A stretch of DNA of 64,000 nt from an uncultured Clostridia bacterium (lineage in GTDB: Bacteria; Bacillota; Clostridia; TANB77; CAG-508): contig CAUWIY010000006.1 of the NCBI GenBank assembly GCA_963559065.1, positions 5,748 through 69,747 of the forward strand. Direction: 5' to 3'. Shown here one piece after another: positions 13,296 to 37,829 of the stretch. Under the pieces are notes generated by a model, which saw only the letters and a program-made list of their open reading frames with translations, was not told the DNA's origin and did no database searches. The position numbers were made by a program, and so were the translations under genes. Within the stretch, counting starts at the first letter, position 1. Each line of letters starts with the position of its first letter.

Positions 13296-13559
13296 TTTTA
13301 TTTTTCTTTCCTTCCCTTTAGCACAAAACGAACTTTAAATTATAGACAAAAGAGATATAATTAAAACCCTTTAAGCATTCATATTATTTGCACATTTTGT
13401 CTTTTTTATAGGTCAATTTTATGCAAAAATTATTTATATTATTAAAAAAGCTCTTTTATTATATCGAAAAAAATATTTCTTTTTATATAATGAATTAAGG
13501 TAAGCATTAGCTTACCTATTATTTCTAAATAATTAAATTGATGGTAAAAACTTAAGTAA

Positions 13560-14090
13560 ATTTTACGGTTTAGGTCTGGTTGAATTTCTCTATTTCCCGC
13601 TTAACATTACTGTTATAGCCGTTTCCGTTTAAGGGAAATAACTAAATATTTTTAGCCACCAGATCGCCACTTAAATCCGTACCTTAATCCTTAAATTTTC
13701 AAGCTTTTGATAAAGCAAACATCCTAGAAGTTTTCCTTAACATACATTGTATAAAGTTACTAGTCTTTTTTGCAAATGCAATTTCATAGTCAAAGTAAAA
13801 AATCTTTGGCCAAAATCTTTTTTACTCAAGATAAAACTAATCCCAATACCTTCACTCAAGACAGGCTACTCTATGTATTTTGTGTCTTGGCACGCAACAT
13901 AGGTTTCACTCAAATTTTTCTATTTAAGTCTCCGCGAAACCAGGGAATCATATATATGCCATTATATACTACCCTAACTCCTTTACTCCCTGCTCACACA
14001 CAAAACTGGCATTCCGCGCATAAACAAGAAACTTCAACGATATGCCCTTTAGTGGATTTTTAGCCCCACCCTCATAACTTCAAGTATGAC
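13560..14090. ncRNA. GC-elevated ORF-free block. Candidate structured non-coding RNA of unknown class, or a degraded foreign remnant.
   Basis: About 530 bp, visibly richer in G/C than flanking sequence. No credible ORF on either strand: the only listed ORF, 13770..14063, has non-protein-like composition. I could not find hallmark motifs of RNase P (GGAAAGTCC), tmRNA or tRNA (GTTCGA T-loop), or the T-box sequence. Confidence 0.3.
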
Positions 14091-14253
14091 TAGAATAATG
14101 CACCATCAATTAATATTATAACAGATTTAGAAAAATATTCCAATTTTTTAGAAGACGGTTTAAGGTTTATTTCAATAATTTATTTCTTTGGTTGATGTAT
14201 TTAATTATTTTTTCTTTCTTTTTCTCACTCTTTTTCATTTTTTATCACTTTTT

Positions 14254-35123: not shown

Positions 35124-37628
35124 CTACAATGTAATTTCTGGATTATCTTCTAATATTTTATCTACTATATTTTCACCTATTTTAAAAGCTGTAACATATC
35201 CTTGTAAATAATTTGCTTTATCTTTTAAACTCTCATTTTGAACATTGACATATATTTTAGATTTTCCCTTTCCATTTTTAGCCTCTTGCACTAAATTTAA
35301 TACTGGAGAATTACCATCAAGAGCTATAACAATTGAACTTCTTCTTTCAAATATTTCATAGTTAAAACTCTTATATATTCCAAATTCTTCACTTTCAGTT
35401 GATATTCGTATTCCATCTACTCCTTCTCGCATTAGCTTCATAGCATTTTCCATTAATATCATTTTTGGAGCAACTGCATATATCTCAAATTTTTTGTCTA
35501 TTTTCTTTGCAATATCTACTATTGCCTTTTCATATCCTTCCATTTTATGTCCAATTACAAAATACGCTTTGTTATTATCTACTTTATTCATTAATTCTTC
35601 TAATACAGAAATTTGATTATCATCTAATAATGTCTTTACACCTTTGGCATTAAAACTTCCTCCAGCAATAATTATAGGAACTTTATCATCTGGCAATTCT
35701 CTTATTTTTTTCTTTAATATTTCTTCTGATTCTACCTTATTGTTTAATCTTAGTTTTATTTTACGATTTTTACTTTGAAAATCAATTTCTTCTTCTAAAT
35801 CTAATAATGACTCTCTTATTGTTCTTCCCGCTAAGAATTCCTCGAACTTTTTACTTTTTTCTTTAAAGTATTTTTCGGAATTTGCTATAATTTCATTTTC
35901 AACAGTTCTCATTTTTTGAAAATCTTCATACTGTAATCCCAATAAATTTTGCAATGCTAATTGCTCATCAATAGTATCTATTCCATAAAAACCGCATCCA
36001 TCTGTACCTTGTACACATTTTATATCATTTTCCAAATATGTTTTTAAAGGATGATTTTCTAATGTAGTTAAATTATTTAATCTTACATTAGATGTTAATT
36101 GAAACTCAAGCACTCCTCCTGTATTTTTTATCTCTTTTATTAGTTCTTTACCCTCTCTTGAATTTAAATCAGCTGTGTAAAGTCCATGTCCAATTCTGTA
36201 TTTTGGCATTTTCTGACCAGGCTTTAAGCTTTCTTTTATACATTGTATTGATTTTGACACATTGCTTCTTAAACTATCATTTTCTCCCGCATGTATTCTA
36301 ACTGTAAAATCATTATCTTCGGCACATACATACTGCACTATTTCTTCTATAACCGGCTTTAATTCAGAAATATCATTAATTTCTTCTCCTATGAAATCAC
36401 TTCCTACTACATATGGACTTTTTGCAATTGCTTTAAGTACATTTAAGTTTTCACGCAAATATGTATCACTTGTTTGTATATCTTTTATTATAGTAAGAAT
36501 AATTCTTCTTATTCCAATTAAAAATCTAAGTTTAACACCTGTTTCTTCTTCTATTTTAGGCATTATTTCGTGTATTTCTTCTAATAATTCAATAGCTGGT
36601 AATCCTTTTTTAGCCAAAGTTGTGTCTGTTATTTCAGAATAATAAATACCTTGTTTTTTATATTCTCTCGCAATCCACAATAATTTATCTTGCATTAAGG
36701 AATTATCTTTATATATGCTGTCATTTGCTTCATCATCTAACATTTTTAACAATGTTTGTTTAATACTATTATCTGGTATATTTAAATATTTATATATGTC
36801 TACATCTATTTTTTCTTTACTTTCAATCCCTTTTGTAAAAACATACCTATATATGTACAGTTTTTCCAAGTTTGTAAAAACCGCTTGACCATCTTTAAGC
36901 ATTTCTAGGCTTTTACTTATTTTTCTTATATTTTCTTCAGCATTATCTAAATTATTTAAAATTAAATCTGCAAAATTAATAAATGTATTATCATCTATTT
37001 TTCTTGTTAAGTATTTTCCTTTTAATTCTGAATTCTTAAATAATTTTGCAACTTCTTCTCTTTGCTTATAAATTTTTTCTTCTTGCTCTTGTGTTAAAAC
37101 AATATTTAATTTCTTTACATAATACAGTGGATATTGGATTTGATGTTTTAGTCCCAATGCTATTAAACAATCTGATGGTAAGTTTGCATTCATGTGTGTA
37201 TGTAAATCAGTTCTAAATTTTAGTTTTTTTAATATATATGATTTTACTATTGTTTTGTTAATATCTAGTTTATAGTTTTTAGTTTGAGACATTAGAACCT
37301 TACTAATTGTCGGAATTTTTGCTTTTATTTCTATCTTTCCATTTGTATAAATATTTGCAATTTTTATTCCTCCTAGTCTAAATATGTAAACTTCTTCATT
37401 GTCTCCATTTATACTTAATGGTATTGTCCCTGATATTATTTTCATACCTTTTTCGTTTTTTATAGTTTTTACATCACAGATTTTAGCTATATTCGTTATT
37501 AAATTTCCGGTGTTGTGATTTGGCGTTTCTAATATATACTTTAGTTCATCATCTTTTTCAAATAAGTTTACTACTATGTCTTTTTCTTTGTCTAAGTAAA
37601 ATTTTCCCTGTATTTTGCTTTCTTTCAT
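35124..37628 (-). CDS. Adenosine/AMP-deaminase-fold (metal-dependent amidohydrolase) fusion protein with an N-terminal extension and a C-terminal Rossmann-like (SLOG/LOG-like) domain
   Basis: ADA catalytic motifs in the correct order, DLHTHMN (HxH), VRIHAGE (HAGE) and QGTDGCG (catalytic Asp), with extra domains of about 130 aa at the N-terminus and about 270 aa at the C-terminus (PIIIAGGSFNAKG..YFVIGHKMEGYE). Confidence 0.55.
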   Translation of the reverse strand: MKESKIQGKFYLDKEKDIVVNLFEKDDELKYILETPNHNTGNLITNIAKICDVKTIKNEKGMKIISGTIPLSINGDNEEVYIFRLGGIKIANIYTNGKIEIKAKIPTISKVLMSQTKNYKLDINKTIVKSYILKKLKFRTDLHTHMNANLPSDCLIALGLKHQIQYPLYYVKKLNIVLTQEQEEKIYKQREEVAKLFKNSELKGKYLTRKIDDNTFINFADLILNNLDNAEENIRKISKSLEMLKDGQAVFTNLEKLYIYRYVFTKGIESKEKIDVDIYKYLNIPDNSIKQTLLKMLDDEANDSIYKDNSLMQDKLLWIAREYKKQGIYYSEITDTTLAKKGLPAIELLEEIHEIMPKIEEETGVKLRFLIGIRRIILTIIKDIQTSDTYLRENLNVLKAIAKSPYVVGSDFIGEEINDISELKPVIEEIVQYVCAEDNDFTVRIHAGENDSLRSNVSKSIQCIKESLKPGQKMPKYRIGHGLYTADLNSREGKELIKEIKNTGGVLEFQLTSNVRLNNLTTLENHPLKTYLENDIKCVQGTDGCGFYGIDTIDEQLALQNLLGLQYEDFQKMRTVENEIIANSEKYFKEKSKKFEEFLAGRTIRESLLDLEEEIDFQSKNRKIKLRLNNKVESEEILKKKIRELPDDKVPIIIAGGSFNAKGVKTLLDDNQISVLEELMNKVDNNKAYFVIGHKMEGYEKAIVDIAKKIDKKFEIYAVAPKMILMENAMKLMREGVDGIRISTESEEFGIYKSFNYEIFERRSSIVIALDGNSPVLNLVQEAKNGKGKSKIYVNVQNESLKDKANYLQGYVTAFKIGENIVDKILEDNPEITL

Positions 37629-37829
37629 ATGACATTCCCCTTTTTATAATTTTATAAATTGTTAATTCAATATTTTATCATATTTTATTAAGTTTTTCAA
37701 TTATTTATGTTGACTTTTAAAATTAATTTAGAACCATTTGTGTTGTTATATGTTCAAATAATAATAAAAAAGAATCAAGTTATATAATAATTTCTATTAT
37801 ATAATTGACTCTTTTTTATTGTTTTATTT

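Follow-up and report, generated by a model that had tools for sequence, protein, structure and literature searches.

A conserved family of large adenosine-deaminase-fold proteins with a C-terminal SLOG domain and a possible role in bacterial purine nucleotide balance

The question raised by this locus is what a bacterium does with an adenosine deaminase (ADA)-type protein that is much larger than a metabolic ADA and has additional domains on both sides of the deaminase region. The gene lies in a 64-kb stretch of contig CAUWIY010000006.1 from an uncultured Clostridia bacterium (the window), and an original prediction, made from the sequence, had offered two answers: a single-gene defence or signalling protein that modifies nucleotides, or a novel purine-salvage enzyme. 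The open reading frame (ORF) reported then was confirmed as complete, with an ATG start on the minus strand and 834 amino acids (aa) plus a stop codon. We found that the ADA barrel lies between an N-terminal domain and a C-terminal domain of the SLOG superfamily, that this is a conserved three-domain architecture of a family (called ADA-SLOG here) without a functional name in databases, and that the family is repeatedly linked or fused to enzymes of inosine and guanine nucleotides. The reading that we favor, with a probability of roughly 55%, is that ADA-SLOG is a chromosomal, physiologically used purine deaminase that is regulated by the SLOG domain, acts on adenine nucleotides (ATP/AMP to ITP/IMP), and feeds IMP. 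It most likely serves purine balance rather than anti-phage defence.

The deaminase domain was evaluated using profiles and motifs. The Pfam model A_deaminase (PF00962) matched residues 319-574 with an E value of 2e-17 and 63.7 bits, relative to a gathering cut-off of 27, which is far beyond chance. The HxH, HAGE, and TDG(C) motifs on which the original prediction relied are present in the right order and belong to a canonical series consisting of DLHTH, GSDFIGEE (residues 409-416), HAGE, RIGHG, LTSN (residues 511-514), and TDGCG. The metal-binding and catalytic residues H143, H145, H446, E449, H481, and D543 are all present, and these positions are invariant or nearly so in 33 distant relatives of about 30% identity. 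An insertion of about 110 aa separates the HxH strand from the second strand of the barrel. By these motifs, the window protein has an intact ADA active site and, because every catalytic residue is kept, the barrel should be able to convert adenine rings to hypoxanthine by hydrolytic deamination.

A profile of the family searched against Protein Data Bank (PDB) chains gave bacterial and Plasmodium ADAs as the best matches (6n9m, 4.5e-21), followed by a snail AMP deaminase of the ADGF type (3.7e-11), N6-mAMP deaminase/ADAL (1e-10 to 1e-12), and chains of the CRISPR-associated deaminase Cad1 (1e-5 to 0.02). A Foldseek search with a low-confidence full-length AlphaFold2 (AF2) model returned the ADA structures 2qvn, 6n91, and 6n9m, in agreement with the profile search. 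However, the score against the NCBIfam ADA equivalogs (TIGR01430, PRK09358) was 58.1 bits relative to a cut-off of 216.55, and all seven ADA models scored far below their cut-offs. Therefore, the window protein is a member of the ADA superfamily but not a canonical Add, and it is 2.4 times the size of the latter, somewhat more than the twofold difference first estimated.

Two positions near the substrate differ from those in canonical ADAs. The Asp that follows HxH (HLDG in 6n9m) is Asn147 in the window protein (HMNA) and Ala in the family consensus, and throughout the family a Gly replaces the second Asp of "TDD", giving "TDG". In mouse ADA these two residues are D19 and D296, which contact the ribose 5'-OH and the purine N7. 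The loss of the first Asp would be compatible with a 5'-phosphorylated substrate, which we regard as a lead rather than proof.

The regions that flank the barrel were less readily classified using sequence profiles. Residues 1-136 and 585-834, scanned in isolation against Pfam, gave no meaningful match, and AMP_deaminase was absent from the Pfam matches of the window protein at E<=1, which bears out the earlier statement that the flanking domains do not resemble those of AMP deaminase (AMPD). The N-terminal region is homologous in distant relatives. In the full-length AF2 model, built from a shallow alignment, the predicted local distance difference test score (pLDDT) was 59 overall and below 60 in the N-terminal domain. 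The possibility that this domain is a fused copy of one of the accessory protein families A (PGDYG), B, C, or E was rejected (hhalign probabilities <=0.1%).

The C-terminal region gave a clearer result, in that an AF2 model of residues 575-834 built from a diverse alignment (A2) had a pLDDT of 94. Nearly all of the top Foldseek matches of this model in the PDB were SLOG members, with high probability. They included DprA of Helicobacter (5mll, 1.6e-5), the MHR/LSDAT regions of TRPM8, TRPM4, TRPM3, and TRPM2, the LOG proteins 5ajt, 1ydh, and 5zbk, the Moco-carrier protein 2iz5, and ShosA (8zva). The modeled C-terminal domain has the SLOG fold, and the Rossmann-like assignment of the original prediction was thus correct and could be refined. 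Pfam detected this relationship in only part of the family: LSDAT_prok ("SLOG in TRPM") matched 6 of 51 relatives (best E 4.1e-5), YAcAr weakly matched one relative (L052), and the window protein itself had no SLOG match in Pfam. Structure comparison, suggested earlier for each third of the protein, placed the C-terminal third with SLOG and the full-length low-confidence model with ADA, whereas residues 1-280 of the model were unusable.

The SLOG domain has three glycine-loop motifs, IIIAGGS (residues 652-658), VIGHKMEGYE (691-700), and ALDGNSPVLNLVQEA (769-783). Conservation of at least 90% across the family was found at just one Pro and three glycine-loop positions, with a single such Gly in the last segment, ALDGNSPVLNLVQEA, which is equivalent to the LOG motif. 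The catalytic motif of LOG enzymes is defined as PGGxGTxxE; it is absent here, the equivalent segment being GGGxIVxDEIQ in most relatives and LDGNSPVLNLVQ in the clade of the window protein. Because the LOG catalytic motif is missing, we infer that the SLOG domain is a ligand-binding module and not a second enzyme.

The extent of the family was evaluated in two ways. A word-indexed search yielded more than 5,650 clusters at 90% identity (E<=1e-3); the best 120 matches were all full-length and 72-100% identical to the window protein, and an identical protein (P0001) was present on 16 contigs. An exhaustive search of 50%-identity representatives yielded 773 clusters at E<=1e-3, of which about 45 were full-length proteins of 750-1,000 aa that have 29-37% identity and share ADA and SLOG, so that the two-domain core persists down to about 30% identity. 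The hosts include gut metagenome-assembled genomes of the "Clostridium sp. CAG:575/440/343" type, Christensenellaceae, other Clostridia, gut "Azospirillum" metagenome-assembled genomes, Ignavibacteriales, and Candidatus Saccharibacteria. The gene is present in 28 related species with 59-82% identity and partly conserved synteny, the closest locus being L001 (82% identity, with syntenic neighbors at 63-90%). Searches of 72,556 plasmid records, 50,697 phage records, and the IMG/VR viral contigs turned up no member. Database names for members are limited to "hypothetical protein" or "adenosine deaminase", and neither ADA-SLOG nor ADA-SLOG-NUDIX was described in the literature searched, the SLOG-defining paper (Burroughs et al. 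2015) being outside that search.

We collected 123 related loci (L numbers), and 117 of the first 119 plus the window gave the family gene in ORF clustering, corresponding to 86 species-level groups; 12 related contexts were annotated using Pfam. Because the synteny of the window is kept only in its closest relative, L001, it is uninformative about function, and the neighborhood conservation called for earlier was found instead as purine partners that recur across relatives. In 11 of the 28 GTDB species (10 species-level groups), all in the clade of the window, a GuaD-type guanine deaminase gene (153 aa, CDA-fold) lies directly upstream on the same strand. Its product matched Bacillus subtilis GuaD (1WKQ) at E 1e-38, compared to 1e-20 for TadA, and the GuaD/ADA-SLOG pair is retained where the flanks are rearranged.

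Genes for IMP dehydrogenase (guaB, E 1e-105) and GMP synthase (guaA, E 2e-182) are directly downstream, on the same strand, in one species. This was at first taken as a recurrent linkage at 8 loci, but all belong to one species at 99% identity and hence were counted once. The gene order serA, ADA-SLOG, tRNA-synt_His-like (probably hisZ), purA, and Pkinase is common to two divergent members, which have only 44.5% identity to each other and come from genomes with G+C contents of 36% and 51%.

The loci of the species with guaB-guaA (L084, L090-L094, L100, and L114; ADA-SLOG 99% identical) were also compared with each other. The downstream guaB-guaA genes are constant, and the region upstream of ADA-SLOG varies between strains, with a Ham1 cassette found there in L091 and L100, and a HopA1-like protein of 777 aa in three others (L084, L092, and L094).

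A second set of partners consists of enzymes that clear ITP and related nucleotides. Ham1/RdgB is encoded within 6 kb of ADA-SLOG in 6 species-level groups; in the Saccharibacteria locus L039 the two genes are divergent neighbors, and in L085 they are 359 bp apart. The chance expectation is 0.34 groups (P ~1e-6) by a rough Poisson estimate, uncorrected for phylogeny, in which Ham1 is assumed to occur once in 2,000 genes, each flank to span 12 genes, and 56 groups to have sufficient flanking sequence. A Nudt16-like NUDIX gene adjoins ADA-SLOG in L029, and L036 has a nearby gene of the NTPase_I-T family, the family of the E. coli ITPase/XTPase, which we take to be YjjX. ITPA, NUDT16, and the E. 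coli ITPase/XTPase are the ITP-clearing enzymes cited in the Cad1 paper (PMC11645235).

ADA-SLOG carries a NUDIX domain at its C terminus in 13 species-level groups, most of them high-GC environmental lineages, giving triple fusions of 870-1,070 aa. The fused domain was called by hidden Markov model and Pfam (a strict NUDIX-box regular expression missed it) and exceeded the Pfam threshold in each of the two proteins that were checked, from L056 and L052. Free NUDIX genes are nearby in 8 further groups, some of them beside or fused to a CTP_transf_like (NMNAT-type) gene. Some of these features would also suit the processing of ADP-ribose (ADPR): the fused domain resembles the NrtR/ADPR-pyrophosphatase type and was retrieved by a profile seeded on NrtR-type (ADPR-binding) NUDIX, L073 and L061 have a NadM-Nudix-like gene (CTP_transf_like plus NUDIX) at a distance of about 2.9 kb, a free NUDIX gene lies beside a CTP_transf_like gene upstream in the species of L084-L094, and an isochorismatase gene and an HD gene are near ADA-SLOG in L032. 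The SLOG matches to Pfam LSDAT and to the TRPM2, TRPM4, and TRPM8 structures point in the same direction, since the SLOG-related domain of TRPM2 binds ADPR.

Taken together, the linkages to guaD, guaB-guaA, and hisZ-purA, and to Ham1, Nudt16-like, NTPase_I-T, and fused NUDIX enzymes, support the purine-enzyme half of the original prediction. As to whether the protein is simply a known housekeeping enzyme, which was raised at the same time, the neighborhoods do look housekeeping or purine-related, but the equivalog scores leave it outside any well-characterised family.

In the mechanism that we propose, the substrate would be a 5'-phosphorylated adenine nucleotide (ATP, ADP, or AMP) and not free adenosine. 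The product, ITP/IDP or IMP, would reach IMP through an ITP/IDP pyrophosphatase, which in the relatives may be the neighboring Ham1, NUDIX, Nudt16-like, or NTPase_I-T gene product or the fused NUDIX domain, and in the window organism is presumably a housekeeping ITPase encoded elsewhere. IMP could then enter the GuaB/GuaA branch or be cycled by PurA, so that the enzyme would act as the bacterial counterpart of AMPD and set the balance of adenine and guanine nucleotides. In the Cad1 ATP deaminase, the CARF domain and an ATP site between the domains control the activity (PMC11645235), and by analogy the non-catalytic SLOG domain may bind a nucleotide-type ligand and gate the deaminase allosterically. 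Distant members match the ADA part of the PADLOC Cad1 model (CARF_ADA; E 1e-11 to 1e-16), which we take as favoring a nucleotide substrate. The complete scheme, in which a ligand-gated ADA-SLOG and its ITPase/NUDIX partner form a hitherto unrecognised bacterial pathway leading from ATP (or AMP) by way of ITP to IMP, equivalent to AMPD in the purine nucleotide cycle and with SLOG reading the nucleotide state, is offered tentatively and is clearly less probable than the general reading of a regulated purine deaminase.

Several observations weigh against this interpretation. The assignments of substrate, product, and SLOG ligand are inferences, and the barrel is closest, in sequence and in the low-confidence model, to nucleoside-level ADAs and not to AMPD, Cad1, or RdrB; therefore, the step from nucleoside to nucleotide is the weakest link of the model. 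A route from ATP through ITP to IMP would spend two phosphoanhydride bonds, which is odd for salvage. The neighbors of the window gene (fn3-like, WG-repeat, AcpS, and TatD proteins) include no purine genes, and guaA, guaB, guaD, Ham1, and NUDIX were not found anywhere within the 64-kb window. The GuaD linkage may be a single inherited arrangement, the guaB-guaA linkage rests on a single species, and the lineage counts are phylogenetically non-independent. The clade of the window protein lacks the acidic pair and one glycine of the family SLOG motifs, and because of these losses its regulation may differ from that of other members. Lastly, some distant loci that contain PGDYG, family B, a ParDE pair, a DNA methyltransferase, or recombinases have the flavor of a conflict system.

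This last point leads to the alternative that survives best, although we consider it unlikely: a defence or growth-arrest effector similar to Cad1 or RdrB, in which SLOG would sense a nucleotide signal of infection, ATP/dATP would be converted en masse to ITP/dITP and the cell arrested, and the ITPase or NUDIX would serve as antidote or reset. ADA-fold ATP deaminases gated by a Rossmann-type sensor do exist (Cad1; PMC11645235), the PADLOC match of distant members is to the deaminase part of CARF_ADA, and SLOG serves as the signal sensor in Thoeris ThsA (PMC7272460), where it responds to cyclic ADPR isomers. The small conserved partners at some distant loci (PGDYG family A, sometimes fused, and family B), with recombinases, a ParDE pair, or a DNA methyltransferase, the strain-variable upstream region within one species, and the mobile-element-like genes downstream in four close-clade loci would fit as well. 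However, PADLOC had no match for the window protein or the accessory proteins, and no TIR, CD-NTase, Cas10, CARF, or AAA+ partner was seen in the window or the 12 Pfam-annotated contexts. The absence of an adjacent AAA-ATPase had been noted in the original prediction and was confirmed. Moreover, the plasmid, phage, and viral collections yielded no copy, the gene is spread across 28 related species with partly conserved synteny, and it adjoins guaD, guaB-guaA, and hisZ-purA. Therefore, the proposal of a single-gene defence protein found little support.

An ordinary adenosine/deoxyadenosine (or adenine) deaminase for nucleoside or base salvage, with additional domains that serve only oligomerisation or stability, is a slightly weaker candidate. 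In sequence and structure the protein comes nearest to adenosine deaminases of bacteria and Plasmodium and to an adenine deaminase, some sources call the relatives "adenosine deaminase", and the GuaD neighbor works at the base level. Against this are the scores far below the equivalog cut-off, the family-wide replacement of the two substrate-contacting Asp residues, the strong conservation of SLOG, and the retention of ADA plus SLOG to about 30% identity; in addition, the repeated linkage and fusion to nucleotide pyrophosphatases would be left unexplained.

The least likely explanation is that SLOG binds ADPR or an NAD-derived nucleotide, ADA deaminates its adenine, and NUDIX splits the product to IMP and ribose-5-phosphate for recycling to the purine pool, because the Ham1, Nudt16-like, and NTPase_I-T partners act specifically on ITP, IDP, and XTP and not on ADPR derivatives, the window clade lacks the NUDIX fusion and has diverged SLOG glycine motifs, guaB-guaA, purA, and guaD indicate mainstream purine nucleotides, and no source of ADPR (an ADP-ribosyltransferase, a sirtuin, or a TIR) was seen nearby.

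Apart from the purine genes, other partners recur near ADA-SLOG. Proteins of the PGDYG family (PF14083) are encoded next to ADA-SLOG in 4 groups and form a C-terminal fusion with it in 3, and no mention of this family was found in the literature searched. A small protein of 80-155 aa with a conserved N-terminal region of about 80 aa and a Lys-rich tail ("family B") recurs in 6 species-level groups, with neither a Pfam nor a PADLOC match. A PHP phosphoesterase adjoins ADA-SLOG in L123.

Other features of the related loci were also recorded. A two-gene module (58-96 aa plus 290-425 aa) with the His/Asp-rich motifs HLxxA…APD…H…HLxTDY is present in L033 and L037 and is fused to the N terminus of ADA-SLOG in one lineage (L042). 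A 210-aa flanking ORF in L037 was judged to be spurious on composition. In L002, L006, L007, and L028, five genes that look derived from mobile elements are common to the region downstream of ADA-SLOG (relaxase-like, 400-440 aa, and small DNA-binding-like); such a shared, mobile-looking gene set suggests an integration hot spot beside ADA-SLOG in some species.

The window itself has a G+C content of about 27% and contains rpoB, rpoC, and SpoIIE, which indicates a low-GC Clostridia-type chromosome. The ADA-SLOG gene has its own promoter-like site about 44 nt 5' of the ATG and a ribosome-binding site (RBS) graded strong, which we count toward a housekeeping character; promoter-like sites were not enriched in this AT-rich region (34 found compared to 43.5 expected). 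Directly upstream are two tandem paralogous fn3-like proteins (69% identity over 303 aa), and WG-repeat, AcpS, and TatD genes are downstream. The fn3-like pair is missing between SpoIIE and ADA-SLOG in L001, which suggests a recent insertion or duplication.

Elsewhere in the window there are two giant ORFs, the shorter of which, with SpaA and SdrD_B-type domains, probably encodes an adhesin of the cell surface. The sole Rfam match was an OLE (Ornate Large Extremophilic) RNA, present at full length and scoring 334 bits relative to a gathering score of 50. A CDA-fold ORF next to rpoC was considered as a displaced GuaD but is the housekeeping tRNA adenosine deaminase TadA (PDB 7cph, E 2e-48) and differs from the deaminase of the GuaD type found beside ADA-SLOG in sister species. 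Coordinates are given in Table 1.

Table 1. Positions of the ADA-SLOG gene, its domains and motifs, and other features, in window coordinates or, after an L number, in coordinates of the related locus.
Feature	Position	Strand	Basis or remark
N-domain/ADA/SLOG protein, whole ORF	35124..37628	-	834 aa plus stop
N-terminal domain, residues 1-135	37224..37628	-	Predicted beta-rich then helices; no Pfam match
ADA (amidohydrolase TIM-barrel) domain, residues ~136-600	35829..37223	-	PF00962; profile match 6n9m; Foldseek
DLHTH, residues 141-145, two metal-binding His	37194..37208	-	Motif; alignment to 6n9m
HAGE, residues 446-449, metal-binding His and catalytic Glu	36282..36293	-	H, G, E invariant in relatives
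RIGHG, residues 478-482, catalytic His481	36183..36197	-	Motif; conserved in relatives
TDGCG, residues 542-546, metal- and water-binding Asp543	35991..36005	-	Family consensus GTDGxGxY
Helical linker, residues ~601-632	35733..35828	-	AF2 secondary structure
SLOG-superfamily domain (Rossmann-like alpha/beta), residues ~633-834	35127..35732	-	AF2 and Foldseek
Promoter-like TTGAAA-17-TAAAAT, TG before it (extended -10)	37672..37700	-	Consensus match only
RBS, GGGG	37637..37640
fn3-like protein, 467 aa	37830..39233	-
fn3-like protein, 579 aa	39263..41002	-
Giant ORF, 1,384 aa	44241..48395	-	SpaA and SdrD_B-type domains
Giant ORF, 1,637 aa	48412..53325	-
TadA, 156 aa	17365..17835	-	PDB 7cph
OLE RNA	13525..14122	-	RF01071
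PGDYG protein, adjacent	L029:7082-7750	-
PGDYG protein, adjacent	L030:7414-7929
PGDYG protein, adjacent	L036:7333-7977
PGDYG protein, adjacent	L039:2002-3351	-
PGDYG protein, fused			L045, L046, L048
Family B	L036:10445-10885
Family B	L037:10501-10959
Family B	L037:6341-6781
Family B	L033:11900-12367
Family B	L029:6825-7067	-
Family B			L088, L101
Triple ADA-SLOG-NUDIX fusion (example)	L056:6689-9337
Triple ADA-SLOG-NUDIX fusion (example)	L052:464-3226
His/Asp-rich two-gene module	L033:10532-11900
His/Asp-rich two-gene module	L037:5446-7088
His/Asp-rich module fused to ADA-SLOG	L042:2434-5370

Members of the family abound in gut metagenomes without carrying a functional name in any source. In the general view, bacteria shift purines from the adenine to the guanine side as nucleosides or bases, and if the interpretation as a regulated nucleotide-level deaminase is true, ADA-SLOG would be a missing node in bacterial purine metabolism, in which the reading of the nucleotide state by SLOG would set the adenine/guanine balance or throttle ATP under stress. 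This would matter most in small-genome gut Clostridia and Saccharibacteria, for which we would expect a reliance on salvage. The natural fusions of ADA-SLOG with NUDIX and with PGDYG offer ready hypotheses about partner functions, and the PGDYG family gains its first functional association through ADA-SLOG.

Compared to known systems, the best sequence and structure matches are to canonical Add (PF00962, TIGR01430; PDB 6n9m, 2qvn, 1add), which has the same amidohydrolase barrel and the same HxH, HAGE, GHG, and D residues. The window protein differs from Add in having the N-terminal domain, the barrel insertion, and the C-terminal SLOG domain, in the changes of HLDG to HMNA and TDD to TDG, and in its equivalog score. 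With members of the SLOG superfamily (LOG, DprA, TRPM MHR/LSDAT, Moco-carrier, the SLOG domain of ThsA, and ShosA) it has in common the fold and glycine-rich loops of the C-terminal domain, whereas the PGGxGTxxE motif of the LOG/PpnN-type nucleosidases is missing. No TIR domain of the kind expected beside a Thoeris ThsA-like protein was present among the window neighbors or the 12 annotated related contexts.

RdrB of the RADAR system is, like the window protein, a large and divergent ADA-fold protein and is reported to deaminate ATP and dATP (PMC9994260). No RdrB chain was found in the PDB profile search at E<=10, PADLOC gave no RADAR match, and there was no RdrA AAA+ gene nearby.

Cad1/CAAD, the CARF-fused ADA of type III CRISPR systems (PDB 9c67, 9ebt, 8z3k), has a like design of sensor plus ADA, but its sensor is CARF and N-terminal, whereas that of ADA-SLOG is SLOG and C-terminal. 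The PADLOC CARF_ADA model did not match the window protein, residues 1-136 contained no CARF or other Pfam domain, and the family profile matched Cad1 chains far more weakly than ADA (1e-5 at best). No cas-like Pfam domain was found in the 15 neighboring ORFs scanned (18.3-48.4 kb) or in the 12 related contexts, CRISPR arrays not having been explicitly searched. ADA-SLOG would therefore extend the Cad1 design, in which a Rossmann-like nucleotide sensor gates an ADA barrel, to another sensor fold and to an apparently non-defence setting.

The eukaryotic AMPD of the purine nucleotide cycle has the same role as the one that we propose, namely the allosteric deamination of an adenine nucleotide to feed IMP, and the linkage of ADA-SLOG to purA and guaB-guaA is consistent with it. 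The regulatory domains of AMPD are unrelated to the flanking domains of ADA-SLOG, no AMPD was among the top 50 Foldseek matches, and the snail protein of the ADGF type matched more weakly than ADA. In design the window protein most resembles Cad1, and in its proposed role AMP deaminase, but it belongs to neither group.

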